Shown here: one piece after another, positions 6,528 to 27,113 of the stretch
How the letters are laid out: each line of letters starts with the position of its first letter
Position numbering within the stretch: position 1 is the first letter of the stretch
Assembly (NCBI GenBank): GCA_005191425.1
Contig: SUPR01000029.1
Location: forward strand, 4,737 to 36,736
Reading direction: 5' to 3'
DNA length: 32,000 bases
Source: Candidatus Helarchaeota ASGARD archaeon Hel_GB_B
Lineage (GTDB): Archaea; Asgardarchaeota; Lokiarchaeia; Helarchaeales; HEL-GB-B
The notes under the pieces: model-generated
Told to the model about the DNA's origin: nothing
The model's database searches: none
What the model saw: the letters and a program-made list of their open reading frames with translations, nothing else
Position numbers and translations under genes: made by a program

Positions 6528-7508
6528 TTATGAATTAAAAATGTAATGATCAATCCGCTTTTGCTTTATTTTTAAATCTTTGAATCCTTTATTTAACCTG
6601 GCTAAACCTCTTCGCACTCTATTTATAGAAAAATTCTTCTCTAATAAATATTCCTTAATAGCCAAAATATTTGGATATTGAAAATAAACATCAAATTTTG
6701 AGGTTATTGGTTTCAAGAATAGGTTTCTAATTTTATTAGCATCAAATTCGTTAAATTCGTAGTCCTTTCTCATGGTCTCAATATTACCATATTTCTTTAT
6801 CATTTTTAATGATGTTTTAGGGCCAAATCCTTCGAATCCTGGATGATAATCATTTCCCATTAAGATAATGATATCAATCAATTGGTTAAAAGAAATATCT
6901 AATTTTGTAAGTACTTTATTCAAAGAGATTTGCTGTAAAGTATTAGTCTTAAAGTTCAATTTTCTATAAATCTTTGGACATCCAAATATTAAGCAATCAT
7001 AATCTTCAGAAATAACTCCATATGCCTGTTGCTCTTTAACAAGGCGCACCGCTTGAGCTTCTCCCTCACTTGGTGCTCTAAATACCGGAACTCCGAACAT
7101 TCGTATAAATTTAATTAAATCTTCAATTATATATTTATATAGGAAGAATGAATCTTTAAAAACCTTTAACTTACTTCCATTTCCACCTAAACTATTATAT
7201 TTTTTCCATGCATTTGACAACCTCTTAATTTTATAGTAATTATATGGTCTTTTTTCTCTTGGTGGAATTCCATCAAAGATAAAAATTGGTTTAATTTTTC
7301 GTTCGATTAAATTTATAATAAAATAAAAGAAACCATAGATATGAGAGACTGGATTTCCATGATAATCATAAAAAATATCTTGAGAATTTTTTATTTTTGT
7401 TATATATTTAAATAATAAGTTAGTTGCGTCAATAACAATCGTCTTATGTGAAATATCACTAAAATTTATTGTTTCTGAAATTACAAGTTCTTTTAATTTA
7501 AGACCCAA
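6528..7508 (-). CDS. fen: Flap endonuclease 1 (XPG/Rad2 family), divergent
   Basis: IVIDA, IFDG.PP, APSEGEAQA, SEDYDCLIFG, ILMGNDY, GFGPKT (H3TH) motifs, and a C-terminal PIP-like QKRIDHYIF. TTG start. Confidence 0.93.
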   Translation of the reverse strand: MGLKLKELVISETINFSDISHKTIVIDATNLLFKYITKIKNSQDIFYDYHGNPVSHIYGFFYFIINLIERKIKPIFIFDGIPPREKRPYNYYKIKRLSNAWKKYNSLGGNGSKLKVFKDSFFLYKYIIEDLIKFIRMFGVPVFRAPSEGEAQAVRLVKEQQAYGVISEDYDCLIFGCPKIYRKLNFKTNTLQQISLNKVLTKLDISFNQLIDIIILMGNDYHPGFEGFGPKTSLKMIKKYGNIETMRKDYEFNEFDANKIRNLFLKPITSKFDVYFQYPNILAIKEYLLEKNFSINRVRRGLARLNKGFKDLKIKQKRIDHYIFNS

Positions 7509-7658: not shown

Positions 7659-8432
7659 TTAAACATGATATAATTCACTACATGCGGATATATTTCTTAT
7701 AATTTTATATAAAACAAATGACGGTAATATTTCAAATTCAACATGGGCAAATGCATTGCTAAATATCGACTTCATTATTAAAAGGTTAGTATCAATAATA
7801 TTGTAAACTTTTTGTATATTTTTTTCATTTAGATTACCTTTTAATTTATAAAAACACCCGTATAAAATTTCAGTTTTCCATTTTTCCATTCTCGAAGGGA
7901 TATTATCATGAAAATTTAAGAATAATTCAGGAAAATCATCAGCCCATTGTAAATATCTGTCATTATTATTGTTAATTTCATTAACTGAAACAAAAGAATA
8001 ATCATAAATTCTAAAAAAACAGAGATTATTATCGGCCATAGACCGAATAAATTTTTTAAGATTACTCTGTATACCTAATGGAATTGATGCAATCCTGAAA
8101 ATAGCTAAAGCAGATAAAGTTTTCCCATTATCTAATAATATAATGTGGTCATTTTCAATATTATTTTTTAGGCGATAGAGTTTAGGTAATCTTGTAGGAT
8201 TAATTAGCAAAACCCTTTTGTTTTTAATGAATTTTTTATCAATCTTGAAAAAATAAATTAATAGAATTATCATTGCTATTGAGAAGCCAAAAATAACATA
8301 TATTATTGCTAATATTGGTAAATTAATAGATGAGATAAATAAAAAATAAAATATTATAGATAAATACATAATACCAGTAATTAAAAATTTATTTTTAAAA
8401 ACAAATCCAGCTATTTTTTCGAGAAATTTCAA
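7659..8432 (-). CDS. Membrane protein with two N-terminal TM helices and a cytoplasmic alpha/beta domain
   Basis: TTG start with SD AGGAGTG (8440-8446). Two TMs within aa 17-62, followed by a soluble domain. Confidence 0.7.
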   Translation of the reverse strand: MKFLEKIAGFVFKNKFLITGIMYLSIIFYFLFISSINLPILAIIYVIFGFSIAMIILLIYFFKIDKKFIKNKRVLLINPTRLPKLYRLKNNIENDHIILLDNGKTLSALAIFRIASIPLGIQSNLKKFIRSMADNNLCFFRIYDYSFVSVNEINNNNDRYLQWADDFPELFLNFHDNIPSRMEKWKTEILYGCFYKLKGNLNEKNIQKVYNIIDTNLLIMKSIFSNAFAHVEFEILPSFVLYKIIRNISACSELYHV

Positions 8433-8450
8433 TCTTATTCACTCCTTTCT

Positions 8451-8963
8451 TTATTTGATTAAAAATTCAATTAGCCCAATAATGATATAAAAAATATTCC
8501 AAGCGATAATTATACCGTCATTTTGAAAAACCATCGGGTAGAAGCACATTCTCACAATTAAAAATGTCATAAATCCCACCCAAAAAATTATCCAGGCAAG
8601 AAATATCACTTGCTTTTTTGTTAAAGAAAATTTATCTGAAACAAATAAATTGTATTGAAAAGAATTGACATTTTTTTTACTACCATCAATAGAAATTATA
8701 TCCGGAAGTTCTTTTGAAAGTTCCAACAAGATATTAACATTATCTTCTAGTTCTTTTATTTCATCTGAAGATAAATTATTGTTAAAAATTGTGTCAAAAT
8801 TAAAATCAATTTCATTCATTATGGTCTTAAAAGATAAAGCATTTGAAATTATTTCATTTGTATTATTTTTTCTTATCAATAAATCCCAAATCACTACAAT
8901 TGAAATTATTACTCCAATAATAACCGGCCAAAACGAAATAAAAAAATTGATAATTAAATCCAT
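8451..8963 (-). CDS. Three-TM membrane protein with a weakly PrgI/VirB3-like 'LTKKQ' segment
   Basis: ATG with SD-like AGGGTG. One N-terminal TM and two C-terminal TMs; 'KFSLTKKQVIFL' directly precedes TM2. Confidence 0.65.
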   Translation of the reverse strand: MDLIINFFISFWPVIIGVIISIVVIWDLLIRKNNTNEIISNALSFKTIMNEIDFNFDTIFNNNLSSDEIKELEDNVNILLELSKELPDIISIDGSKKNVNSFQYNLFVSDKFSLTKKQVIFLAWIIFWVGFMTFLIVRMCFYPMVFQNDGIIIAWNIFYIIIGLIEFLIK

Positions 8964-8972
8964 AATAACACC

Positions 8973-9398
8973 CTAATTTTCAAAATCAAATAATTCAGAT
9001 GAAAAGAAATCTTCTAAATCACAATTCACCAATTCAGATTCAATTTTTCTTCTAATAATTTTGGTAATTTCGGGATTTGGCCCAATAATATAAACACAAA
9101 CAAGGTCATTATTTAAAATAACATTTTTCGAGTTAGAATCATTGACCGAAATTATAGCATTTTTGAAGTAGAAAGTATCATAAATTCTTTTTGCACCGAT
9201 AAATTTACTTGGAATTATGTTATTTATTAATAATATTTTCTGATTTTTAGTTATATATAATAATTCAGATTCTTTTCTTCTTGAATAATATTTAGATCTG
9301 GCTAATCTAACATCTTTAGGAAGAAAATTTATGAGTCTAAAGTATAAATAGAAAATTATTCCGACAATTATAACTCCAATCAGTAAAATCTCAATCAT
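8973..9398 (-). CDS. Single N-terminal TM-anchored hypothetical protein
   Basis: MIEILLIGVIIVGIIFYLYFR anchor followed by a soluble domain. First gene of a tight three-gene operon with 9 and 18 nt gaps. Confidence 0.7.
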   Translation of the reverse strand: MIEILLIGVIIVGIIFYLYFRLINFLPKDVRLARSKYYSRRKESELLYITKNQKILLINNIIPSKFIGAKRIYDTFYFKNAIISVNDSNSKNVILNNDLVCVYIIGPNPEITKIIRRKIESELVNCDLEDFFSSELFDFEN

Positions 9399-9497: not shown

Positions 9498-12161
9498 GTG
9501 AATAAATTGATCAAGTACGATAAGATCATTAAAGATATGTTAGAAAAAGTTGGTATCGAAAATTTACGGCCAATTCAGAAGCAGTCGGTGCCATTTATAT
9601 TTGGGAAAAAGCCAAGAAACTTATTAATAGTGGCACCCAGTGCCAGTGGAAAAACTTTAATTGGGGAGCTTGCGTTAATGAATGCTGCATTAAACGGAAT
9701 GAAAGGTTTTTATTTAGTCCCATTAAAATCTATAGCAAATGAAAAATTTATAGATTTCTTCAAAAAATATAGTGCTAATATTTCGATTGCAATCACTACG
9801 GGGGATTTTGATATCTCTATGGAAGAATTGGAAAAAAAACAAATAATAATAACAACATATGAGCGATTTGATTCAATTATTAGAAAAAAACCTTCTTGGT
9901 TTAAAAGGATTTTTGTAGTAGTTATTGATGAAATCCATAATATTGGCGATAGAACTCGTGGTATAAAACTTGAGAGCCTTTTAACCCGACTTATGACTTA
10001 TAATCAAATTCAAATTATTGGACTATCGGCTACAATTAAAAATCCAGAGGACTTAGCAAGCTGGTTAAATGCGGAATTAATAATAAACAAAGAAAGACCC
10101 GCAGAATTGCGATATAAAATTCTTATCTCAGAAAATAAATATGAAACCTTAAAAAATTTAATACCAAAATTGGTCGAAAAAAAAGCACAAATACTAATTT
10201 TTACTAGAACTCGAAAAGAGTCAGAAAAATTAGCAAAAAATCTATCAAAAGTTGTCAAAAAATACCTCACTTTTGATGAATTTCAGGAATTGGATTCATT
10301 TTCTAAAAATATTATGGAGTCATCACTTGATTTTCAGACAATTACTGGCGGTGTTGGCTATCACCATGCCGGCTTAGATCATAATTCAAGAATTTTAGTT
10401 GAAAAATTGTTTAATAATTCATTAATTAAAGTCATTTGTTGTACTACTACATTGTCTTCCGGGATAAATACGCCTGCAAATATTGTAATAATAAAGGATT
10501 TTAAAATGTACAATAATATTTCAAACAGACCAGAACTTTTGGATAAAAATAAATTCCATCAAATTTCTGGAAGAGCTGGAAGATTTGAAAAAAATATTGG
10601 TTTTGCAATTATTATGGTATCAAATGAAGAGGAAGCAAATAAAGTAAAGGAATATTATTTTAAAGAAATTAATTTAAATAATGATAAATATCATAAAAAA
10701 AGCGTTTTAAAAGCTAAATATGAAAATATTTTTAGTTCATTACCTGAAAATAGATATGCTTTAATCGATCAAACATTGGTTTTTATTCATCACCATGCTG
10801 AAGGAATAACTAGAAATGATTTAATTAGATTTTTTAAAAAGACATTCTTTTATTTTCAATTAAAAAGCCATGGAAATGAAGATTATTTAATAGAACGACT
10901 TGCGTTTGATAAAAAGAATATAGAAGCTGTCTTAAGAGCTCATTTAGTTAACCCCAATAACATTATACCTGCGGAAGTAAAGGCTATACATATATTAGAA
11001 GATAGATTTGAAGGTATTGTTATTACTAATCATGAAAAAATTGATAGAATTTGTAGTTTTTCTAATAATTCCCGATACTGCACTTGCTCCACTTTTAAAA
11101 ATACAGGTTTTTGTATTCATTTATATCATTTAGCTATTGCAGCATTGAAAAAATATCGGATTTCATCGGAAGATATCATTTTAAGTTCATTTAATGAAAA
11201 TTTTATTTTAGATTATCTTCTTAATAACAATCTAATTTATATCGAAAATGAGCGGTTTAAGTGTACAGAATATGGAAATTTAATTGTGAATCTATTTATA
11301 GACTCGCGTATGTTTCTATTTATTAGAAATAGATTGAAATTTACTACTTGTACTTATGATTTTTTAGATTTGATTAAAAAATTAACGGAATTAAAGTTTG
11401 AAAAATCTCTGAGTTATCATTATCTTTCAGTATTAAATGAAATAATAAATACTGACGAAAATATCGATATTAATAAATTTTTAAAAAAGATGAGTACATC
11501 TGAAATTGGAATTGGTGACCTTGAGAGTTTTATAGAGGCATGTAGATGGGTAACTAATGTGATAATAAAAGTTGCAGAAAATACAATTGAAGGAAACGAA
11601 AAAATCATTAATATTGGAAAAATGGTCTTGGATAAAATAAATAGACCATTACCAGATGAAGAAATGATGTATAAAATAGTCCAAAGCTCAATGGGTTCGA
11701 ATATTGGCATTATAAAAAGTAACGATGAAGATATGAAACGAATATTCTGTAAAAAAGTCAAATATTTTTTAGTATTACATAAAATAAGCGGAGTCCCAAT
11801 TTATTCATATAATTTCTCTCTTAATGACCTTGACTCGTCATTAATATCTGGTTATTTGACAGCAATTAGTAGTTTCGGGCTAGAAATATCTGGAGGAATT
11901 CAAACAAACGTGAAAAAAATGGAATATGATAAAATGAAAATTTTGATACAAGAAGGAGAAAACATTCGAGCTACTATTATCTTGGAAGAAGGATATGATG
12001 AATGGGTTTTAGAGCGACTTAAAATTTTTATTGAAAATGTTGAGAATAAATTTACAAATTTACAGAACTGGAATGGAGATTTAAACATGTTTCGGAATAT
12101 CGGAAAAATGTTTAATGAAGTATTTGGTTATAATCTAATTGAAGACCCGCCAAATATTTAA
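9498..12161 (+). CDS. Hel308/Ski2-like SF2 DExH helicase with inserted SWIM zinc finger and C-terminal longin-like domain
   Basis: Q motif (LRPIQ), Walker A APSASGKT, DEIH, GLSAT, HHAGL, TTTLSSGIN and QISGRAGR. SWIM C528-x-C530-x8-C539-x-H541 (11079-11120). Longin-like 'YFLVLHKISGVPIYSYNF...DSSLISGYLTAISSF' from ~11760. Confidence 0.88.
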   Translation: MNKLIKYDKIIKDMLEKVGIENLRPIQKQSVPFIFGKKPRNLLIVAPSASGKTLIGELALMNAALNGMKGFYLVPLKSIANEKFIDFFKKYSANISIAITTGDFDISMEELEKKQIIITTYERFDSIIRKKPSWFKRIFVVVIDEIHNIGDRTRGIKLESLLTRLMTYNQIQIIGLSATIKNPEDLASWLNAELIINKERPAELRYKILISENKYETLKNLIPKLVEKKAQILIFTRTRKESEKLAKNLSKVVKKYLTFDEFQELDSFSKNIMESSLDFQTITGGVGYHHAGLDHNSRILVEKLFNNSLIKVICCTTTLSSGINTPANIVIIKDFKMYNNISNRPELLDKNKFHQISGRAGRFEKNIGFAIIMVSNEEEANKVKEYYFKEINLNNDKYHKKSVLKAKYENIFSSLPENRYALIDQTLVFIHHHAEGITRNDLIRFFKKTFFYFQLKSHGNEDYLIERLAFDKKNIEAVLRAHLVNPNNIIPAEVKAIHILEDRFEGIVITNHEKIDRICSFSNNSRYCTCSTFKNTGFCIHLYHLAIAALKKYRISSEDIILSSFNENFILDYLLNNNLIYIENERFKCTEYGNLIVNLFIDSRMFLFIRNRLKFTTCTYDFLDLIKKLTELKFEKSLSYHYLSVLNEIINTDENIDINKFLKKMSTSEIGIGDLESFIEACRWVTNVIIKVAENTIEGNEKIINIGKMVLDKINRPLPDEEMMYKIVQSSMGSNIGIIKSNDEDMKRIFCKKVKYFLVLHKISGVPIYSYNFSLNDLDSSLISGYLTAISSFGLEISGGIQTNVKKMEYDKMKILIQEGENIRATIILEEGYDEWVLERLKIFIENVENKFTNLQNWNGDLNMFRNIGKMFNEVFGYNLIEDPPNI

Positions 12162-12164
12162 TAT

Positions 12165-14123
12165 TTACAAATTAATTTTGTTATAAAACATTTTTACAAT
12201 TCTTCCAACAAGTCCCTCATATTTTTCGATTTTTATAATCCTGTCTTGTATCCAATTACTTAATAATTTAAAATATTTTTTATAAAAAAATCTTTCATCT
12301 AAAAATATTATTATTCCTTTATCATCAAGTTTTCTGATAGGTCTTCCTGCTGATTGATTTGCTTTTCTTAAAGCAGGGATATAATACGCATATTCCAGTC
12401 CTCGTTCTTCACCAAATAAGTTTTGATAATATTTAATCAATTTTTTTATTGAATACGAAATTTTTGCAAAAGGTATGCCAACTATGACTACAGTACTCAT
12501 TTCCTTACCTGGAAAATCTACACCCTCAGAGTTTCTACCACCAGATGCACCAATTAAAAACCCTCTCATACCCTTGTAAGGTAATTTCTTATATTCAGTG
12601 ATCATAGCTTCGTTCTCTTTACTATTCATACTTTTAGATTCCATGAAAAATTTGATCCCCAATTCCTCTATTTTTTCTTTTAGCCCTTGTTCTAAAAGTC
12701 CATTAATTACTGAATAAGATGCACAGAAAACCCCTGTATTATATTTTGTGTTTTTAGCTGCTTCAACACAACAATTCATGATAAACCTATAATTCTCTTC
12801 AGTTCGGTCTTCAAATTTTAGAGTGATATCTTGTACTCCTATTATTGAAACATTTTCAAATGGGAATGGCGATGGTAGTATTCGTTCTTTAGTATTATCA
12901 AGGGTCATCCCGCAAATTTCTCGGAATGCTCGTATCGGCGCTAAAGTACCAGAAATTATCACCAAATTTCTTGCATTAAATAAATCATTTAAAATGGGTC
13001 TAACATCAAGTGTTTTAATCACAAACTCAACATTTATTTTATTTTTAACTTTAGATACTCTTAAAATATGAATATAGTCTGGTCTTAAATAATTTTGATA
13101 GATAAATTGTAAAAAATGTGCTGTTTTATATAGGCTAGACCTAGGAAGTTTATTATTTTTAAGCATTAATTCTCGAACTTGTACCCCTTTTTCTATTAAA
13201 TTATTGAAAAAATTCTCAATATTGTCTGTTTTTATTTGAGAGAAAATATTTTTTAATGTACTTTTTCTAACAGCTATTTCGATAGTTTCACCCTCTTTTG
13301 GGTCGTATGCCATCCCAGTAGTTTCAATAAATGATTTAATGTCCTTAAGAAATTGTATTGATGGGACATCATCGTCTAATAGTAATCCAATTAATTCATC
13401 TAAAGCTCTTTTAACTGATCTGGGTGTGATTTGTTGAGTCCCTGCTTCTAATGCCACATCAATTATATTATGCCCTTCATCAAATACAATTATGCAATCA
13501 GAAATTAATTTATCGATATCTTTGAAAAAAATTTGCCTGATAAATGGGTGAATTAGATAATTGAATGTCGTAATAATTACATCAGTCTCTTTCAATAGTC
13601 TTTTTGCCAGATAATAAGGACATATATTATATCTTACGCCAATAGCAATTAATTCTTCACTTTTACCTGTTTTTAAATTATATTCAAAATTTTGTAAATT
13701 GGTGAAATATTTACAACTTCCATTTTTTCGCAATTGGCTACAAAGATCTGTAATCTCCATTATTGTCCCTCTCCTGACTTCTTCATTAAGACACATCTCG
13801 GTTTTCCCTTTTAATGTTAAACCTCTAACCACATAACCTTGATCACTACCTTTTTTGTTTATTTCCTCTAATTCAGCAATAACCCTATCCATTTGGGTAT
13901 GCGTCCGAGTAGCATATATCATAGTTAAATTGTTTTGCTTGATAATTGGTATAATAGCAGATAAAGTTGTTATTGTTTTACCAGAACCATTTGCAGCTTC
14001 TATGAGAATGAATTTATGTGGTAATTTTAAATGGTCATATATTTCATTCATTAATAGACCTTGTCCAGGCCTAAGTGAATTATAGGGAAAAAACTTTCTA
14101 ATTGAAGAAGGAATTGATATCAT
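12165..14123 (-). CDS. xpd: XPD/Rad3 (DinG family) FeS-cluster 5'-3' helicase
   Basis: LRPGQ, AANGSGKT, ATRTHTQ, four FeS cysteines (EMC, DLC, GSC, ICPYY), DEGHN, ISGTL, SEGVDFPG and QSAGRPIR. Confidence 0.93.
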   Translation of the reverse strand: MISIPSSIRKFFPYNSLRPGQGLLMNEIYDHLKLPHKFILIEAANGSGKTITTLSAIIPIIKQNNLTMIYATRTHTQMDRVIAELEEINKKGSDQGYVVRGLTLKGKTEMCLNEEVRRGTIMEITDLCSQLRKNGSCKYFTNLQNFEYNLKTGKSEELIAIGVRYNICPYYLAKRLLKETDVIITTFNYLIHPFIRQIFFKDIDKLISDCIIVFDEGHNIIDVALEAGTQQITPRSVKRALDELIGLLLDDDVPSIQFLKDIKSFIETTGMAYDPKEGETIEIAVRKSTLKNIFSQIKTDNIENFFNNLIEKGVQVRELMLKNNKLPRSSLYKTAHFLQFIYQNYLRPDYIHILRVSKVKNKINVEFVIKTLDVRPILNDLFNARNLVIISGTLAPIRAFREICGMTLDNTKERILPSPFPFENVSIIGVQDITLKFEDRTEENYRFIMNCCVEAAKNTKYNTGVFCASYSVINGLLEQGLKEKIEELGIKFFMESKSMNSKENEAMITEYKKLPYKGMRGFLIGASGGRNSEGVDFPGKEMSTVVIVGIPFAKISYSIKKLIKYYQNLFGEERGLEYAYYIPALRKANQSAGRPIRKLDDKGIIIFLDERFFYKKYFKLLSNWIQDRIIKIEKYEGLVGRIVKMFYNKINL

Positions 14124-14893
14124 TTATTATAAACCCCTTTTTTATAGTTATATAGAAGTTTTCCAGTTAATAGACTAACAAGTATACCAATTACAATTGA
14201 AATTATCATATAATTATAATTTATAAAAAATAAATTTATAAGATTAGAACGAGCAAATCCTGAATAATTAGAATTGATTATTGTACAAGTTAATATCGGC
14301 TCAGATACTAGATTTTCTCTTATTGAAACTTCATATTTCAACAATATTTTAGAATTTATATCATAATAATAGGAAATAATCAGTGCTTGAGTAAAAACTG
14401 TTATAATATGTGTATAGACTTGACATAAAATCAACCCGATTTTATTTCCGAAATCAATCACTTCTAACTGGGATTTCTGAAATAAAACTTCTGATGGGGA
14501 AAGATTTGTAGCCAATATTATTTGTGGTTGAAAATCCATTAATATCCACTGCTGATGGTCATTATCTTGGTCTTTACCAGTTTCTGGATCTATATAATAT
14601 GTGCTACTTTTTATATATTCGAAAAAATTTAATCTATAGTTTTCAGTATATGTGACAATTATAACCTGACTAGAAATATTAAATTGAACTTCGATATTCG
14701 ATTGATATTGACCTTTTAAATAGAAGGAATCAGGACTAATCTCTATCAAATTTCCATTAACTATATATGATACATTAAAATTGCCTAAAGTTGCTGAATA
14801 AGTTATTTTTGAATAGAAAATTAACATATTAAATAAACCAAAAATAGATAAAAGAATAATAAAAAAAATACTAGCCCTATTTTTAAAATTCAT
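14120..14893 (-). CDS. Exported/membrane-anchored protein (N-terminal signal, beta-rich ectodomain, C-terminal TM)
   Basis: Hydrophobic N-terminus and C-terminal TM (IISIVIGILVSLLTGKLLY) followed by KK. ATGA overlap with the xpd start; 24 nt downstream of the RadA-like gene. Confidence 0.75.
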   Translation of the reverse strand: MNFKNRASIFFIILLSIFGLFNMLIFYSKITYSATLGNFNVSYIVNGNLIEISPDSFYLKGQYQSNIEVQFNISSQVIIVTYTENYRLNFFEYIKSSTYYIDPETGKDQDNDHQQWILMDFQPQIILATNLSPSEVLFQKSQLEVIDFGNKIGLILCQVYTHIITVFTQALIISYYYDINSKILLKYEVSIRENLVSEPILTCTIINSNYSGFARSNLINLFFINYNYMIISIVIGILVSLLTGKLLYNYKKGVYNK

Positions 14894-16543: not shown

Positions 16544-17968
16544 ATGACCTCAAAAACACATGTTTGTCTAATTCAATGCGATTATCCTAAAGACCATAGT
16601 TTTATTATTAAAGATATTATTTTTCCACCATTAGGATTAGAGTATTTAGCTGCAAATATTGGGGATTTAGCTGAAATTAAGATTTTTGATAATAGATTTC
16701 CCGAATATAACTTAAAAAATCTTAAAAAAGAATTTGAAAATTTTCACCCAGATATTGTAGGGATAAGTGTAAATTTCTCCAATCAAATTTATCATGCAAA
16801 TGCTATAGCTAAAATTGCAAAAGATTTTGGAGCTAAAGTATTAATGGGTGGTTGGCATGCCACTGCAGTACCTGAGGACACGTTATCATTTCCATGGACT
16901 GACCTTGTTATTCGTGGTGAAGGAGAATCTGCTCTGAGAAACCTGATTATAAAAGGTAGTCCTTCTGACATAAAAGGGATTTCTTATAAAAAAAATGGAA
17001 AAATAATTCACAATCCTGACCAAGAATTGTTAGATTTAAATTCATCTAATCCTCCTGCCCGAAATTATAGGCCTAAATTCGCTAAAAAATATTATAACTT
17101 TTTTGGTGTTCCGGTTGATTCGATGGAAACGAGCAGAGGATGTCCATATAGATGTAAATTTTGTAATATACATAATTTTTATCACCATAAATATAGAACA
17201 CGCTCAATTCGTCAAATCATCCAGGATTTAAATCAAATTAATGAATCAGTTAAATTAGTATATATTATTGATGACAATTTTACTGCATATAGAAGTCATG
17301 TAATCGAAGTATGTAATGCAATAATTAAAAGAAATATAAAAAAAGCATTTATGAGTACTTCACGCCTAGATCAAGTTGTAAAATACCCGGAAATTTACGA
17401 ATTAATGGCAAAAGCTGGGTTTATTTTTACTTTTGTAGGAATTGAAAGCTTTTCCAATAAAACCTTAAAAAGTTTAAACAAACAGCTTGAATTGAAACAA
17501 ATTAGAAAAGGTATAAAAATTCTGCATGATTTAGGGTTTATTATTGAAGGAAATATTATATTGGGAGCAAATTATAACGATACAAAAAAGGATTTAGAAT
17601 CAACATTGGAAATAGCTAAAAGTCTAGACATCGATATACCGACCTTCTCTTTACTTACACCTTATCCTATGACAGACCTCTGGGATGAAGTCAATGAAAA
17701 AGGGCTTCTTTTATCGGGGATTGACTGGCACAAATTCAACTGGAATAACCCAATTATAAAATATCCTCATTTGTCTCCTGAAGATTTGAAATATTATCTA
17801 AATAAAGCATATTTCGAGGTCAGACGATTTAAAAATCCATTAAATAAATTTGTTAATATTCTCAGAGCTAGAGGGCTGTCTTTCTTTATTTCTACTTTTC
17901 TAACTCAAGGTGGAATCAAATCTCTAATACATTTTATTAAAAGAATATATCCTGACTTTTTGAAATGA
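16544..17968 (+). CDS. Cobalamin (B12)-binding radical SAM protein
   Basis: B12-binding domain (PPLGLEYLAA, PDIVGIS, MGGWHAT, RGEGE). SRGCPYRCKFC (CxxxCxxC), IDDNF and GIESFS. Confidence 0.92.
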   Translation: MTSKTHVCLIQCDYPKDHSFIIKDIIFPPLGLEYLAANIGDLAEIKIFDNRFPEYNLKNLKKEFENFHPDIVGISVNFSNQIYHANAIAKIAKDFGAKVLMGGWHATAVPEDTLSFPWTDLVIRGEGESALRNLIIKGSPSDIKGISYKKNGKIIHNPDQELLDLNSSNPPARNYRPKFAKKYYNFFGVPVDSMETSRGCPYRCKFCNIHNFYHHKYRTRSIRQIIQDLNQINESVKLVYIIDDNFTAYRSHVIEVCNAIIKRNIKKAFMSTSRLDQVVKYPEIYELMAKAGFIFTFVGIESFSNKTLKSLNKQLELKQIRKGIKILHDLGFIIEGNIILGANYNDTKKDLESTLEIAKSLDIDIPTFSLLTPYPMTDLWDEVNEKGLLLSGIDWHKFNWNNPIIKYPHLSPEDLKYYLNKAYFEVRRFKNPLNKFVNILRARGLSFFISTFLTQGGIKSLIHFIKRIYPDFLK

Positions 17969-18212: not shown

Positions 18213-18923
18213 ATGAATGATAATAAAAGAAGGGCATCTTTAAATTTCTTGACACTAAAAAGCGGACTGGATGGATTGGATAGGCAACTAAGAAATGGTT
18301 TTAGCCCAGGAATAATTCACATTTATGGCCCCCCTAATACTGGCAAATCTAATTTTGCAATGCAACTTGTATTAAATGCGATTACTACTTATGATTCTGA
18401 ACCAATTTGGATTGATACAAATAATAATTTTGAATTTAGAAGACTTATCCAAATGACTGGAAATAATATAAGAATATTGAGAAATTTCAAATATTTAAAT
18501 CCTATAAATTACGATGAATTTAAAATTTTGATCGAAAATATCCCAAAAATTATAGATAATAAAACAATGGTGCTTGTAATTGATCCCATTACTTATTTCT
18601 ATAGATTAAATGTGAATTTAAATAATTGGTTCGGCTTAAAACGAGATTTAATTAAAATTCTTGGAAAATTTATTGGTATCTCTGTTAAAAATCATTTAAT
18701 AATTATATTAGTCAATCAAATAAAAGGTCATGAAATGAAATTAGAAGCAGTGTGTCAGGATATTCTAGAATTATATTCAAAATATTCATTACTTTTTGAG
18801 AATAAAAATGGCTTAACTATTACTCTTCGTAAATTACGTAATATAAAACTCAATAAGAAATTTAAGTTTAAAATATCAAACAATGGACTTTCGGATTTTA
18901 GCACAAAAATAGGAATTGATTAA
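18213..18923 (+). CDS. radB: RadB-like RecA-fold paralogue (no N-terminal domain)
   Basis: SGLDGLDRQLRNGF, IYGPPNTGKSNFAMQL, WIDT, LVIDP and LVNQ motifs. Length of 236 aa is typical of RadB. Confidence 0.75.
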   Translation: MNDNKRRASLNFLTLKSGLDGLDRQLRNGFSPGIIHIYGPPNTGKSNFAMQLVLNAITTYDSEPIWIDTNNNFEFRRLIQMTGNNIRILRNFKYLNPINYDEFKILIENIPKIIDNKTMVLVIDPITYFYRLNVNLNNWFGLKRDLIKILGKFIGISVKNHLIIILVNQIKGHEMKLEAVCQDILELYSKYSLLFENKNGLTITLRKLRNIKLNKKFKFKISNNGLSDFSTKIGID

Positions 18924-22112: not shown

Positions 22113-25100
22113 ATGAGAATTTCAGTTAATAATCACAAGGTAAAATCTACGTTTTTAATATTAATTTTGGCTTTTATGATATTTGTTAATTTGTTTGCTT
22201 TAAATTATATTATCCCATATTCTCGATATTCAAATAATAAATTAAACAGCAAAAAAAGCAATAATTTCATTCAAAATAGTAATTCAGGATTTGTTGAAAG
22301 CCCAATTACTAATCCTAATTCATTATACGCTGAAAATAATACTAATGCTGTCTTAACCTGTAATAAAACTCAAAGTTTTTTAGGTAGGACGCCGCACTTA
22401 ATTAAAATAAATACTTATAACTGGAATTTTACGGCAACTAAATTAGGTTTTTTCGGTATCTCTCAAAATTATACATTAATAGTAGAAGATATTGCAGAAG
22501 ACCATAATAACATTTTTCAGGAGGATGTTTATGATGAATGGGCACAAGGTTTCAGCTTAAATGCACAATTCAGTAGGATAAATAAAATTGGACTTTATCT
22601 ACAATATAGAGGAAAATATGATTTATGGGTAGAGGTGTATAATGCGACCGATACCGGAGATTTATCTTTAGAACCGGATAAATTACTAATGAAATCTGAA
22701 ACAGTTACTATTGAAAATCTATTCAATGCTAAAAGCGAGTTTATAATTTTTAATTTTCAAAGCAATAAAATAATTAACAATTCAGAAACATGTGATAATA
22801 CCTTTTTTATAATTCTAAATGGGACGAAAACCGGTGGTATATATGCATTTGTTGAATGGTGGTATGCAGACGATGAAAAGGGAATAGACAACGGTGATGC
22901 ATTGGAATATAAAAATAATAGATGGGAACTTAATTCGATTGATTATTATTCTATAATAAATTTAACTCAACTGTTTTTCCCTGAAGATATTAATATGAAA
23001 ATAAATGATTCAGCAACAACAACAATTGATGTATTAAATGGGGCTTCTCCTGGTCGGGGGCATGTTTCATTTTCTAAATTTATTCCAAACTCAAATGTTT
23101 CAATCTTAGTGACTTCGACTACTTTTGTTAATTTCATGGCAATTTCAAATACAAGATTGAGTAATTCTTCACATGCATTAACTCAGTTTTATGCAGGTTC
23201 ACAATTACCGACCGTAAATATAAACATAAGTCTTTATGCTCACTTTATCATTGATTCATTTGCAAAAAAATTGAATATAACATTACAAAAAAGCTGGAAT
23301 GTTTCATTAATTAGTGCTAGCCAATTAATTCTTAGTAGTTCTGATTGGAAGCGTTCAGGGAATTATTTATTAATAAATGCAAGCGATAATTTTTACGCAA
23401 TAAAATGTATAGATCACAATTATATTGGTAATATTATACTAAATACCTATAAGGATTCTCTTTTTATAAATCATAATTTAACTGTTAATAATACATTTAG
23501 GATATATAATTCAATAACTCCCATTAATTTAACAATTTATAATTCGTCAGATAGACTAATCCACACTCAAAAGAAATTACCCAGTAATTATTACTGTTCA
23601 TTTGACCCCTATAATATGACTTCAAATGGGATGTTTAAAATAATTTTAAAGTGGTTCAATGGCACTTCAATAGGTTATAACTTTTCAAATATAGAGGTAC
23701 AATACCACGCGGACTTTTATGAAATATCTGACAATATTAATCAATCAAAACCGTTTCAAGCTGGAGAATTGGTATTAGTAGACGCATTTTATAATAATAC
23801 TGAATTAAACTGTGGTATATTAAATGCGTCCAGCGACATTTCTATTAATATGACAAGCAGAACTCAATACAATGTATCAGAATTTGGTGGTGGGTATTAT
23901 AATATTACCATATATACAAACCAACTTACTTCAAAAAATTATACTTTAGTAATTTCTGCTCATAAAGTTGGATACGAGGAGTCAAATTTTTCGATAAGAT
24001 TTCAGATCATTACTCATTTTAATGCTACAATGAATATCACAGGATATTATGGAAATGTATTTAGAAATGGGTCATGGTGGGTGCACCCAAATCCTTATTT
24101 TAGTGACAATACGCATAAAATTCAGATTATTTATAAGAACGGTACTGCGCCCTATGATGGAATTTATCCTGCAGCAATATATGCATATCCAAATTGGTCT
24201 TCAGATGTCTGGTATGGGAACCCTTTTGATACTTTTGGTCGATATGATATAACATTAGATACAACAGGGCTCCACGAAGGCGATAAAGGTGAAATAACCA
24301 TTATTGCAACATCAAATATGTTTGAAACAAAAGAGATAAGAATATTTTTCAAGATAGATGAAATACCCGAGAATTTATTATCATTTGATATAAATGGATT
24401 TGAGGAAATTACAGCTTATGAAGGTGAAACAATCCAAATTGCAGCAAGTTTTATTGACGATTTTCATGGGAAAGACATTGTGTTTGAAAATGATACAGAA
24501 GGTAATTTGACTTGGTACATACCCGGTACAACTGCAACGGGTCTAATGAGTAAAATAATCCACACTTATATGGATTCAATTGAACTTCCTTCCTATAATA
24601 TTACCGGAGGAGATTATAACATTACAATAAAAGCCCAAGCATTGCGAGATTATGCAACTAAGGAAGTTAATATATCACTTCATGTCTTGAATAAAGAGCC
24701 CACTAATATAAATATAACATATTATACTGAATCAGATGTCCGAATTGGGAAGCCATTATACATATATTCTACTTTATCTTTTAGTAATGGGACCAGATTA
24801 AATTATAAAATGCTTGAATTTAACCTTACATATTTAAATAATACAATTATCATAGATTCAGTTAACACAACGATATTAACAGATAGTAATGGTGTTGCTA
24901 CTTATTTTATTTCTGAATTGCCTGACAATATAAATAAAATTCGGGTGAATTGCAGCTATTCAGGAACAGAAAAAATTGCAGAAACTAAAGGGTCTAGAAT
25001 TATTAATGTACTGGACAAATATGTGACTTTTATTAATATTACTGCAGAATATTACAATGATATTAGAGTTGGAAGAAATATATCATTTCACGCTAACCTT

Positions 25101-27113
25101 ACAAGCCTAGATTTCGGGCCTATGATAGGTACAAGCGTTATATTTAACATAACATATCTATTTTATACAGGAAATAGCAGTTTACTTGTTTATAAATCAT
25201 TTGGGACCAATGAAAATGGTACTGCCAGTTATAGCATTGAACATATTCCTGATGGTGTTAAGAAAATCTATATTTCAGTAAAATATTTAGGAACAAATAC
25301 ATATCATTCTTGCTCTGACTTTAAAAATTATTCCGTAAATAAGAAATTTAATACCTCTCTTGAATTAATATCTGCACTCCCCCAAGAAGTTATGGTAGGT
25401 AATTATATCTTTTTAGAAGTTAAGTTGACTAACACTGAAAATGGCGTTCCAATCTCAAAAGCTACCATTAATTTCAAAATTTTATTCGATAATGGCTATT
25501 CATTGACCCAAAAGTCCACCACATTAACTACGGGGATAGCAATATCAAACATTAAAATACCCAATGAAGCGTCAAATGCACAATATTTTACTGTGTCTAT
25601 TGATTATGAAGGTGATTATTCAATAGTAAATGCATCGTTTATTTCACATGCCCGGATAAATGTTTTAACACCAGTTCGATTATTTGTCCGTAATCTTCCA
25701 TTTATTCTTACTGTAGTGGCAATTGGGGTAGCCTCAGTTCTTACTTATCAATTTACAATTAGAGCTCCTAGAATTAGACGAAAAATCCGTAGAATGAGAG
25801 AAGTTAATCAGAAATTTTCTGATATTTTGAATGTCCAACACCTGATGATTTTATATAAAGAAACTGGAATAACAATCTATAACCATTCATTTCAAGAAAG
25901 AACTTTTGATCCCGACTTAATTTCTGGCTTTCTAACGGCTATTGCTTCATTTCAAACTGGCTCTCATATTAAAACAGGAAAAGATGCAATTACAAGCGGT
26001 TTTGAACTAACATATGCTAATTTTATTATTTTAGTTGAAGAAGGAAATTATACCAGAGTTGGACTCATATTAGACCAAAAACCATCAAGTGAACTAAGAC
26101 AGTCTTTAAGAAAATTTCTGAATTTATTTGAGAATAAATATGAAAAAGAATTAAAGCAGTTTTCTGGTTATATAAAGCCTTTTAAAAATTCTGGTAAACT
26201 AGTAGAACAAGTATTTGAAGCATCCTTGATTTGGCCACATAGAGTAAACCCAAATATTACAAGTGAAATGGAGAAAAATCTAACAAATTTCGAGAGCATG
26301 ATTTTAACCTTAGCATTGACAATTCAAAAAGAAAAAAGCTTTTTTATGACCCCAGCATTGATTGAAGCAGTACTGGAAGTTAAAAAAACAAAAACTGAAG
26401 AAATTCTGGCAGCCTTCGATGACTTAAGAAAAAAGAATATCTTTATACCCTTTCCATTAGAGGAATTGGCAAAAATTATTGAAGAAGATAAAGAAAAAAG
26501 TCAAATAGTTGATATTACAACAAAATTAGAGGATGATGAAGAAATAGTCCCCCCAATAAAAGGTGTCCCCAAAAAAGATATGGTATATTTAAATAAACAT
26601 CTAAAATTAACGAATTATGTCTTCCAAAAATGGTTTTTAAATGAACTCTCAAAAACACCATTACCTGAAATAACTAATTACATAAAGAAAATAATTAATA
26701 ATTGGAAAAAGAATAAAGATGAAATTACATCATTAATGAATAAAGCAAAAAATTCCAAAGAAAAAGGCGACCTCGTTAGTGCAGTAGAAATATTCGACGA
26801 AGCTAAAAAATATGCCGAAGAAATTGGTCTTGAAGATAAAGCAACTGAAATTTCCAATAAAATCCATGAAACTCTTGAAATTATGAAAAATAATGTTCCA
26901 TTAAAATATGAAAAATTAATTAATAAATTCCTAAACGAAATAAATGAAATTAATAAAAAAGCAGAAATTGAAGTCAATAATAAAAACTTCATCAATGTCT
27001 GTATTTTATATATCAAAGCAGCCCATTTATCGCTCCAAATTGGTGATAGCAAAACAGCCCAATTATATCTTGATGAAATTGTAAAATATGAAAAAAATCT
27101 TGAAGACCTTTAA
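22113..27113 (+). CDS. Giant single-pass receptor-like protein: signal, glycosylated Ig-like ectodomain, TM, cytoplasmic longin, wHTH and TPR-like helices
   Basis: N-terminal signal with SD AGGTG at 22098-22102. Dozens of N-x-S/T sequons before the TM. Three Big-1-like repeats at ~24735-25635. TM at aa ~1195-1216. Longin 'QHLMILYKETGITIYNHSF...DPDLISGFLTAIASF' at aa ~1241-1376, followed by a wH-like segment and C-terminal helical hairpins. Confidence 0.85.
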   Translation: MRISVNNHKVKSTFLILILAFMIFVNLFALNYIIPYSRYSNNKLNSKKSNNFIQNSNSGFVESPITNPNSLYAENNTNAVLTCNKTQSFLGRTPHLIKINTYNWNFTATKLGFFGISQNYTLIVEDIAEDHNNIFQEDVYDEWAQGFSLNAQFSRINKIGLYLQYRGKYDLWVEVYNATDTGDLSLEPDKLLMKSETVTIENLFNAKSEFIIFNFQSNKIINNSETCDNTFFIILNGTKTGGIYAFVEWWYADDEKGIDNGDALEYKNNRWELNSIDYYSIINLTQLFFPEDINMKINDSATTTIDVLNGASPGRGHVSFSKFIPNSNVSILVTSTTFVNFMAISNTRLSNSSHALTQFYAGSQLPTVNINISLYAHFIIDSFAKKLNITLQKSWNVSLISASQLILSSSDWKRSGNYLLINASDNFYAIKCIDHNYIGNIILNTYKDSLFINHNLTVNNTFRIYNSITPINLTIYNSSDRLIHTQKKLPSNYYCSFDPYNMTSNGMFKIILKWFNGTSIGYNFSNIEVQYHADFYEISDNINQSKPFQAGELVLVDAFYNNTELNCGILNASSDISINMTSRTQYNVSEFGGGYYNITIYTNQLTSKNYTLVISAHKVGYEESNFSIRFQIITHFNATMNITGYYGNVFRNGSWWVHPNPYFSDNTHKIQIIYKNGTAPYDGIYPAAIYAYPNWSSDVWYGNPFDTFGRYDITLDTTGLHEGDKGEITIIATSNMFETKEIRIFFKIDEIPENLLSFDINGFEEITAYEGETIQIAASFIDDFHGKDIVFENDTEGNLTWYIPGTTATGLMSKIIHTYMDSIELPSYNITGGDYNITIKAQALRDYATKEVNISLHVLNKEPTNINITYYTESDVRIGKPLYIYSTLSFSNGTRLNYKMLEFNLTYLNNTIIIDSVNTTILTDSNGVATYFISELPDNINKIRVNCSYSGTEKIAETKGSRIINVLDKYVTFINITAEYYNDIRVGRNISFHANLTSLDFGPMIGTSVIFNITYLFYTGNSSLLVYKSFGTNENGTASYSIEHIPDGVKKIYISVKYLGTNTYHSCSDFKNYSVNKKFNTSLELISALPQEVMVGNYIFLEVKLTNTENGVPISKATINFKILFDNGYSLTQKSTTLTTGIAISNIKIPNEASNAQYFTVSIDYEGDYSIVNASFISHARINVLTPVRLFVRNLPFILTVVAIGVASVLTYQFTIRAPRIRRKIRRMREVNQKFSDILNVQHLMILYKETGITIYNHSFQERTFDPDLISGFLTAIASFQTGSHIKTGKDAITSGFELTYANFIILVEEGNYTRVGLILDQKPSSELRQSLRKFLNLFENKYEKELKQFSGYIKPFKNSGKLVEQVFEASLIWPHRVNPNITSEMEKNLTNFESMILTLALTIQKEKSFFMTPALIEAVLEVKKTKTEEILAAFDDLRKKNIFIPFPLEELAKIIEEDKEKSQIVDITTKLEDDEEIVPPIKGVPKKDMVYLNKHLKLTNYVFQKWFLNELSKTPLPEITNYIKKIINNWKKNKDEITSLMNKAKNSKEKGDLVSAVEIFDEAKKYAEEIGLEDKATEISNKIHETLEIMKNNVPLKYEKLINKFLNEINEINKKAEIEVNNKNFINVCILYIKAAHLSLQIGDSKTAQLYLDEIVKYEKNLEDL

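Follow-up and report, generated by a model that had tools for sequence, protein, structure and literature searches.

We analysed a 32,000-nucleotide stretch of DNA from the Asgard archaeon Candidatus Helarchaeota Hel_GB_B (contig SUPR01000029.1, positions 4,737 to 36,736), referred to below as the window, in which an open reading frame (ORF) on the forward strand, 9498-12161, encodes an 887-residue helicase assembled from parts of quite different kinds. The GC content of the window is very low (22-32%), and the ORF contains no internal stops. Its candidate starts are GTG at 9498 and the in-frame TTG at 9507, where a public record begins. The gene is alone on its strand, with a divergent ORF of 141 amino acids (aa) upstream and a convergent gene for an XPD-type helicase downstream.

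The protein has a Hel308-type core, a SWIM finger set inside the winged-helix (WH) domain, and a longin-like domain that replaces the C-terminal domain 5; longins are otherwise familiar from trafficking and from the regulation of GTPases. This build is real and conserved: an initial annotation, made from the DNA letters alone, had proposed the same architecture, and sequence motifs, structural models and homologues bear it out. A gene-fusion or assembly artefact was ruled out, as the ORF is uninterrupted in five protein clusters drawn from different assemblies and again in a genome of the same genus. The features of the gene are as follows (positions in the window, residue numbers in the protein).

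9498..12161 (+): whole ORF, SWIM-Hel308-longin helicase, 887 aa, starting at GTG 9498 or TTG 9507
9498..10673 (+): RecA1 and RecA2, the superfamily 2 (SF2) motor core, aa 1 to ~392; Pfam DEAD and Helicase_C, PDB 2zj2, motifs invariant
10737..10943 (+): winged-helix domain 3, N-terminal helices, ~aa 414-482; model helices 25-87, aligned to the WH of Hel308, Brr2 and PadR
10944..11204 (+): SWIM zinc-finger insert, ~aa 483-569; four beta strands, CxC-x8-CxH at nucleotides 11079-11120, then a helix
11205..11312 (+): winged-helix domain 3, C-terminal part, ~aa 570-605; recognition helix at model residues 176-182, wing hairpin strands at 186-189 and 192-195
11313..11699 (+): ratchet domain 4, a full-sized helical bundle, ~aa 606-734; Z 11-12 in VIA structural alignments, PF21280 in 24 of 33 relatives
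11700..11729 (+): low-confidence linker, ~aa 735-744, where a helix-hairpin-helix (HhH) domain 5 would start; predicted local distance difference test score (pLDDT) below 50 at model residues 341-351
11730..12143 (+): longin-like module, aa 745-882; alpha, beta-beta, alpha, beta-beta-beta, then C-terminal helices; AlphaFold 2 (AF2) pLDDT 88.7

Domain architecture of the helicase

Pfam places DEAD (E = 2e-31) and Helicase_C (E = 1e-11) within aa 24-363. The initial annotation had read all SF2 motifs as intact, and indeed motifs I (APSASGKT, aa 46-53), II (DEIH, 144-147), III (SAT, 177-179) and VI (QISGRAGR, 355-362) are present and invariant across the homologue alignments. The closest solved relative of the core is Pyrococcus Hjm/Hel308 (2zj2, E = 7e-77 across aa 5-457), followed by SLH1 (3e-70), ASCC3 (1e-67), Brr2 (3e-65) and Archaeoglobus Hel308 (3e-64), and the top full-profile matches are archaeal DNA-helicase models. 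NCBIfam models of the Hel308 type score 240-325 bits, covering only aa 6-474, and the Hel308 equivalog cut-offs are not reached (NF040935, 250 bits against 1200; PRK02362, 325 against 887). Judged by its sequence, the ORF encodes a Hel308-family (Ski2-like SF2) helicase.

The region behind the core, aa 395-745, was modelled with AF2 from an alignment of 33 sequences of the subfamily (pLDDT 84.5) and is described here in model numbering. The insert consists of four strands (98-134), the CxC at 134/136, a helix (146-158) that starts at C145/H147, and two further helices; its strands and CxH helix thereby separate the first helices of the WH from the recognition helix and wing (LDYLLNN...FKCTEYG). 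Winged helices of PadR proteins, ~85 residues long, align over model residues 20-211 using just 70-76 residues, and Sulfolobus Hel308 (2va8, VIA Z 11.2) has its residues 418-645 spread over model residues 17-324. Because the PadR and Hel308 alignments both bridge the insert of ~90-100 aa, the WH is truly split, and resumes at LDYLLNN, as had been suggested from the sequence.

The SWIM ligands are C528-x-C530-x8-C539-x-H541, exactly at the position first assigned to them (11079-11120). All four are invariant in 37 of 37 subfamily members, down to ~23% identity, and are the sole invariant columns of the insert alignment, so that the conservation one would ask of a genuine finger is present. A CxC-x(5-16)-CxH motif stands at the equivalent position in every one of the 37 subfamily members of ~710-785 aa that we found, plus five longer ones; in the other group of Asgard Hel308-like matches, ~810-870 aa long, 85 of 86 are without CxC..CxH. 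Against the Pfam SWIM family (PF04434) this copy scores 10.7-12.5 bits (E 0.1-0.4; gathering threshold 19.6), whereas 10 of the 33 aligned relatives are matched (best E 7e-7) and the homologue P0253 has a precomputed SWIM match. Direct naming of aa 430-887 by Pfam and NCBIfam gave noise-level hits only (SWIM at E 0.1, nothing for the tail), and a PDB search with a sequence profile of the insert (alignment A6) found no relative. At the level of sequence, the SWIM insert defines an Asgard-wide Hel308 subfamily and is not peculiar to this gene.

The ratchet follows as a helical bundle at model residues 197-340. VIA comparison of the WH and ratchet model gives the PolQ helicase (9bh6, Z 12.2), Brr2 (Z 11-12) and Hel308 (2va8 and 2zj2, Z 11-12), and the alignments of Hel308, PolQ and Brr2 reach model residues 324-343, covering the whole of domain 4. 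Pfam Helicase_dom4_arc (PF21280) matches 24 of the 33 relatives, not this copy. A short ratchet, as the initial annotation had it, was rejected on this structural alignment: about seven helices over ~130-145 aa (~aa 591-734) align with the entire domain 4 of Hel308, PolQ and Brr2, making it a full-sized domain.

Domain 5 was also thought to be missing, and here the annotation was right. No Pfam HHH family matches anywhere in the ORF, and the last ratchet helix is followed by a disordered, low-confidence linker with no evident helix-loop-helix; between the ratchet and the longin module this linker is variable in alignments A1 and A3. Within the subfamily, HHH_5 is kept only by the deep-branching P0172 and P0253, and the other longin-less members end 4-22 aa past the ratchet. 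Domain 5 of Hel308 acts as a brake on ATPase and helicase activity and as a sensor of single-stranded DNA, and is required for annealing (2026 review, PMC13623763).

The C-terminal module was modelled as aa 745-887 on 51 aligned sequences. In module numbering, DSSP assigns helix 2-9, strands 10-17 and 23-28, helix 36-53, strands 63-66, 69-75 and 79-85, and helices 90-107 and 118-132, which is the longin topology (beta-beta, alpha, beta-beta-beta, alpha-alpha) with an extra N-terminal helix at 2-9. The best Foldseek matches in the PDB (E 2e-5 to 1e-3) include AP-2 sigma, Fuzzy and Mon1-Ccz1, at E 2e-5 to 3e-4, alongside zeta-COP, TRAPP and MglB. By VIA, longins come first, with TRAPP 3cue_C at Z 11.8 (123 residues aligned), Sec22 3egd_C at 11.5, AP-3 mu at 11.4, Mon1-Ccz1 and Fuzzy at 11.3-11.4 and VAMP7 at 11.1, and their alignments cover module residues ~8-136; roadblocks reach Z 10-10.8 (Roadblock3 9jue, 10.8; MglB, 10.3), about one Z unit behind, and cover only ~4-113. 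The tail had been called longin-like from its sequence, a call that the confident fold and the leading place of longins in both VIA and Foldseek uphold. On the model, the module belongs to the longin/roadblock superfamily: its C-terminal helices are of the longin type, one further helix stands at its N-terminus, and the two folds are close to a tie by score. Sequence methods see little of this: a PDB search with the profile of the module (alignment A2) found no relative, no Pfam longin family matches this copy or any of the 51 aligned family members, and distant paralogues in its HMM family match Fuz_longin_1 at E 1e-4 to 5e-3, under threshold.

Modelled as a homodimer, the module gives an ipSAE of 0.54, against 0.02 for the best control. 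Of 30 proteins solved as one-chain pairs, 20 attained this score of 0.54, as did 1 of 23 solved as single chains. The dimer runs agree in at least 97% of contacts, with a partner pLDDT of at least 83, and the interface is made by the central helix (module residues 38-55) and the next edge strand (59-69), including G41, A45 and F49, which are invariant in the module family. The module is thus predicted to homodimerise through its most conserved motif.

Distribution of the subfamily and of the longin module

When aa 440-887 served as query in a word-indexed search, four full-length relatives came back (873-884 aa; identity over the query part 47-53%), and the closest homologues, where named, are labelled Helarchaeota or Promethearchaeota. 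By profile search, the named members of the SWIM subfamily belong to Lokiarchaeota, Helarchaeota, Hermodarchaeia, Jordarchaeum, Odinarchaeota, Baldrarchaeia and 'Asgardarchaeia'. The longin fusion occurs in five protein clusters at 90% identity and in the same-genus genome, so an arrangement first described from one gene recurs in related genomes. Among species representatives of GTDB, the same-genus genome carries the fusion (50% identical over 365 aa), three same-order genomes have SWIM helicases of 742-759 aa without a longin tail, and a large neighbouring family has only the SWIM-less type of ~840 aa. A phylum-wide genome search at E 1e-25 returned the window's own genome only, probably because the threshold was too strict and no more than six candidates were scored; the rerun at class level was informative.

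A quick maximum-likelihood tree was built from 29 members with SWIM, 12 without it and the second paralogue of this genome. In it, P0008, a longin-less Lokiarchaeota protein, joins the five proteins that bear a longin in a clade (SH-aLRT 100) nested in the SWIM subfamily, with the branching order inside that clade unresolved. From these comparisons of sequence we conclude that, in a small clade, the ratchet acquired at its end a module drawn from an Asgard domain family that is large and promiscuous. The narrow distribution of the fusion, together with the extensive and lineage-specific shuffling of roadblock/longin domains described by Liu et al. (10.1101/2020.10.19.343400), would suit a longin tail that is a neutral by-product of rampant Asgard domain shuffling and has no role in helicase function. 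We consider this very improbable, given that the tail is 45-55% identical across five lineages, against 52-59% for the rest of the protein, that it keeps the invariant residues of the module family, and that the ORF is uninterrupted in every assembly.

It had also been asked whether a canonical Hel308 exists elsewhere in this genome, which is 94% complete. A second Hel308-like paralogue is encoded on contig C109 (L004:616-3252, 878 aa) and has both Helicase_dom4_arc and HHH_5. A domain-5-bearing paralogue is therefore present. It is extremely divergent (branch length 3.4 in the tree): additional sequence separates RecA1 from RecA2, and its Walker A context, SGTGTGKS, is unusual. A third SF2 helicase, on the minus strand of contig C15 (L002:2-2065), has an N-terminal extension of ~230 aa without a known family and is cut by the contig end.

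The longin module itself is one of a very large Asgard family. An exhaustive HMMER scan with aa 440-887 (E 1e-3 or better) returned 601 representative proteins of 116-2774 aa, nearly all of which match only aa ~745-882, and whose companion domains are immunoglobulin (Ig)-like, FG-GAP, leucine-rich repeat (LRR), tetratricopeptide repeat (TPR), PCI/DDRGK and winged helix-turn-helix (wHTH). This 3.5-Mb genome alone holds copies in 42 places by module profile and in 44 proteins by ORF scan; four module matches hold an in-frame stop (contigs C105, C102, C116 and C107). Carriers include a longin joined to an Arf/Ras/Roc GTPase (L017, C131:21456-22346), an NPRL3-like longin joined to a wHTH (L016, C102:19299-20330), PCI and wHTH fusions (among them PCI/DDRGK plus wHTH), multipass membrane proteins with a C-terminal module, and four proteins of 1500-1855 aa with a hydrophobic N-terminal segment and a second one, predicted to be transmembrane, ~40 aa before the module. 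L010 (C160:19223-21394) is another example copy. A shape search of the Atlas showed a similar range of partners in Promethearchaeota, including a 376-member longin-GTPase cluster (template modelling score, TM, 0.76), and one Atlas cluster has Fuz_longin_1 on 35% of its members. These carriers agree with the massive shuffling of roadblocks and longins reported for Asgard genomes (Liu et al.; PMC10933270). Because the module rides on partners as different as HTH, PCI, TPR, LRR and Ig-like proteins, its presence names no single pathway.

One of the four giants lies in the window itself (22113-27113, +; 1666 aa). It has no Pfam match, a hydrophobic N-terminal segment and another at ~aa 1192, and a longin module at approximately nucleotides 25809-26225 (E 1e-41 to the family profile); the three similar giants, of 1514-1855 aa, are on contigs C132, C134 and C124. 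We considered a specific tether between the helicase and this 1666-aa membrane protein, 14 kb downstream, and rejected it, as nothing singles that protein out: the motif the two share is a family signature of 42-44 proteins in this genome.

The initial annotation inferred that regulation or localisation of the helicase is wired to GTPase or membrane signalling. On this reading the longin domain would link the enzyme with a small GTPase, or with longin proteins anchored in the membrane, and its activity or location would be switched by such signalling. The module could then serve as a GTPase platform, as an element resembling a guanine nucleotide exchange factor (GEF) or GTPase-activating protein (GAP), or as one half of a heterodimer whose other half is the longin in the cytoplasmic tail of a giant membrane protein. 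Known longins and roadblocks do act as GTPase platforms (PMC10933270), and the family to which the module belongs includes the L017 and L016 fusions in this genome and the 376-member Atlas cluster. The four giants carry it shortly after a predicted transmembrane helix, and the place of its most conserved motif, within the predicted dimer interface, makes heterodimers between paralogues plausible. The same 42-44 copies, however, sit on so many kinds of partner that no pathway is identified, and the sister protein P0008, like the whole wider subfamily, works without the module. We regard such coupling as unlikely, though it deserves to be kept in view.

Genes around the helicase

Four genes of the window bear on the function of the helicase.

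6528..7508 (-): FEN1/XPG-family nuclease; Pfam XPG_I and XPG_N; also near the helicase in homologue loci L005, L006, L007, L008 and L022
12165..14123 (-): XPD-type helicase, convergent with the helicase gene; Pfam DEAD_2, HBB and Helicase_C_2; in the same position in L005 and L006
14918..16015 (-): RadA-like recombinase with HhH and Rad51 domains; Pfam Rad51 (E 2.5e-43) and HHH_5
18213..18923 (+): RadB-like short Rad51/KaiC paralogue; Pfam ATPase (KaiC) and Rad51

We compared eight SWIM-helicase loci, namely the window and seven loci of homologues, in which the helicase shares 34-58% identity with the one studied here. RadA-like and RadB-like genes both lie within 9 kb of the SWIM helicase in seven of the eight, in varying gene order, the exception being a Baldrarchaeia-type locus. 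Six of these seven loci also have FEN1. The single SWIM-less control locus has no Rad51-family gene. No conserved GTPase gene lies beside the helicase among the inspected loci, which counts further against a GTPase switch: only the Jordarchaeum locus L022 has one annotated in its flanks, at a distance of 5 kb, and GTPases are abundant in Asgard genomes.

Several details of these loci may be recorded. A B12-binding radical SAM gene (16544-17968, +) separates the RadA-like and RadB-like genes in the window; in the Helarchaeota/Lokiarchaeota loci L005 and L006 the RadB-like gene comes directly after RadA. A 257-aa ORF without a Pfam match (14120-14893, -) lies between XPD and RadA and overlaps the start of XPD, and L005 has a 256-aa ORF in the matching position. 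Between FEN1 and the helicase (7659-9398, -) there are ORFs of 257, 170 and 141 aa without Pfam matches, and ORFs of similar size take the place of this trio in L005 and L006. A conserved small upstream partner was not found, the divergent 141-aa product having no detectable similarity to its positional counterparts in L006, L007 and L008. On the Jordarchaeum contig (L022:9001-17089), nine consecutive genes share one strand, in the order SWIM helicase, a 134-aa gene, RadB-like, a 445-aa gene, a TPR protein, FEN1, a 206-aa gene, an Arf/Ras-like GTPase and an unannotated 237-aa gene.

The neighbourhood also bears on the kind of nucleic acid the enzyme acts on. An RNA helicase of the Ski2/ASCC3/Slh1/Brr2 type, employed in RNA surveillance or ribosome rescue, would account for SLH1, ASCC3 and Brr2 scoring near the two Hel308 proteins and for the WH-ratchet cassettes of Brr2 and ASCC3 aligning as well as that of Hel308; the DNA-repair neighbours would then be coincidental. 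That coincidence would have to extend to seven of eight loci, in which the proximity of RadA, RadB and FEN1 has been kept despite the low identity of the helicases. The protein moreover has a single cassette and no Sec63 FN3 domain, and its best full-profile matches are to DNA-helicase models of archaea. The repair-gene neighbourhood thus disfavours a role in RNA metabolism, which we judge quite unlikely.

A proposed role and comparison with known systems

We propose, at a probability of roughly 60%, that the protein is a recombination or fork-repair helicase that has lost the brake formed by domain 5 and acquired a module for dimerisation or recruitment. The enzyme would act on DNA in homologous recombination or in the repair of stalled forks, alongside the RadA-like, RadB-like, FEN1 and XPD proteins. 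With domain 5 gone, its motor would be unbraked and its annealing element absent, and the longin module would provide a new point of control, most likely by pairing two helicases, or a helicase and another longin-bearing protein, through the conserved helix and strand edge. The SWIM insert, on the surface of the WH, is most likely an element that contacts protein or DNA. A RadA paralogue such as the RadB-like protein could be its partner, as one candidate: it is through its SWIM domain that Shu2 binds Shu1, a Rad51 paralogue (PMC5727457). HELQ is known to bind RAD51 and the paralogue complex BCDX2 (PMC13623763).

Several points weigh against this proposal. SLH1, ASCC3 and Brr2 score nearly as well as Hjm, so that sequence does not decide between a DNA and an RNA substrate, and this copy falls under the Pfam thresholds for SWIM, for the ratchet and for every longin family. 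The linkage to recombination genes rests on one control locus and on related, non-independent genomes, and is suggestive rather than statistical; the helicase gene is monocistronic, its neighbours being divergent on one side and convergent on the other, so its link to the repair genes is regional and not operonic. Solved roadblock/longin dimers exist, so the homodimer result may in part be recall by the model, and because our own alignment was used in the dimer run its calibration is only rough. The choice of a RadA paralogue as SWIM partner is pure analogy, taken from Shu2/SWS1.

These findings matter in more than one way. Control of Hel308 and HELQ has so far been explained largely through domain 5 and contacts with RAD51-family proteins; a conserved Asgard lineage that lacks domain 5, has a SWIM finger in its WH and sits beside RadA and RadB paralogues offers a system for studying how such helicases are steered toward recombination. 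The fusion also attaches an easily measured enzyme activity to one longin from an Asgard family that is very large and whose function is unexplained. As that activity is measurable, biochemistry could show which role the module has, whether as dimeriser, recruiter or GTPase platform. The idea that an Asgard longin implies trafficking is tempered by a module found on dozens of unrelated proteins in this one genome. One may speculate further, as something of a long shot, that the SWIM Hel308 and its RadB-like neighbour are an Asgard counterpart, possibly a forerunner, of the eukaryotic links between SWS1/Shu2 and Rad51 paralogues and between HELQ and BCDX2, and that in this clade the longin domain puts recombination under a GTPase-type or longin-longin switch. 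If true, this would for the first time connect the 'trafficking' domains of Asgard archaea directly with genome maintenance.

Literature searches turned up neither a SWIM insert in Hel308 nor a longin-helicase fusion; both are new arrangements of known parts. The protein resembles Hel308/Hjm (2p6r, 2va8, 2zj2), HELQ and POLQ in its RecA1-RecA2 core with all SF2 motifs and in the order of WH domain 3 and seven-helix ratchet domain 4, and the genomic company of recombination genes fits the known roles of Hel308 and HELQ. It differs from them in the SWIM domain of ~90 aa within the WH, the lack of an HhH domain 5 and the attached longin-fold module, and from Hel308 also in falling far under the NCBIfam equivalog cut-offs (250 versus 1200 bits). 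Its nearest counterparts, the longin-less SWIM-Hel308 proteins (for example P0008 of Lokiarchaeota, P0031 of Hermodarchaeia, P0270 of Jordarchaeum and P0253 of Baldrarchaeia), share the core, the positions of the SWIM ligands, the ratchet and, mostly, the RadA/RadB/FEN1 neighbourhood. They end shortly past the ratchet (4-22 aa) or, in the Baldrarchaeia type, with an HhH, and the longin is confined to the clade of the protein described here.

The SWIM finger is known from bacterial and archaeal SWI2/SNF2 ATPases, MuDR transposases, MEKK1 and Shu2/SWS1. Like known SWIM domains (PF04434; CxCxnCxH with n ~6-25), the insert has a CxC-x8-CxH that ends a small beta sheet and runs into a helix, and it is associated with an SF2 ATPase; like Shu2/SWS1 it is also linked to paralogues of the Rad51 family, in this case through gene neighbourhood only. 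Unlike them, it is located inside the WH of a Hel308-type helicase rather than forming a terminal domain, and this copy is under the Pfam threshold. The longin module, for its part, shares its core with AP sigma and mu, zeta-COP, Sec22/VAMP7, TRAPP Bet5/Trs23, Mon1-Ccz1, Fuzzy and the Loki Roadblock-Longin protein 8yqg (Z 11-11.8 over 112-130 residues), and its predicted pairing through a central helix and edge strand is that of roadblock/longin dimers. It departs from known longins in its roadblock-like extra N-terminal helix, its low identity to them (7-18%) and its lack of a Pfam longin match, and in sitting not on a SNARE, coat, GEF or GTPase but on a nucleic-acid motor.

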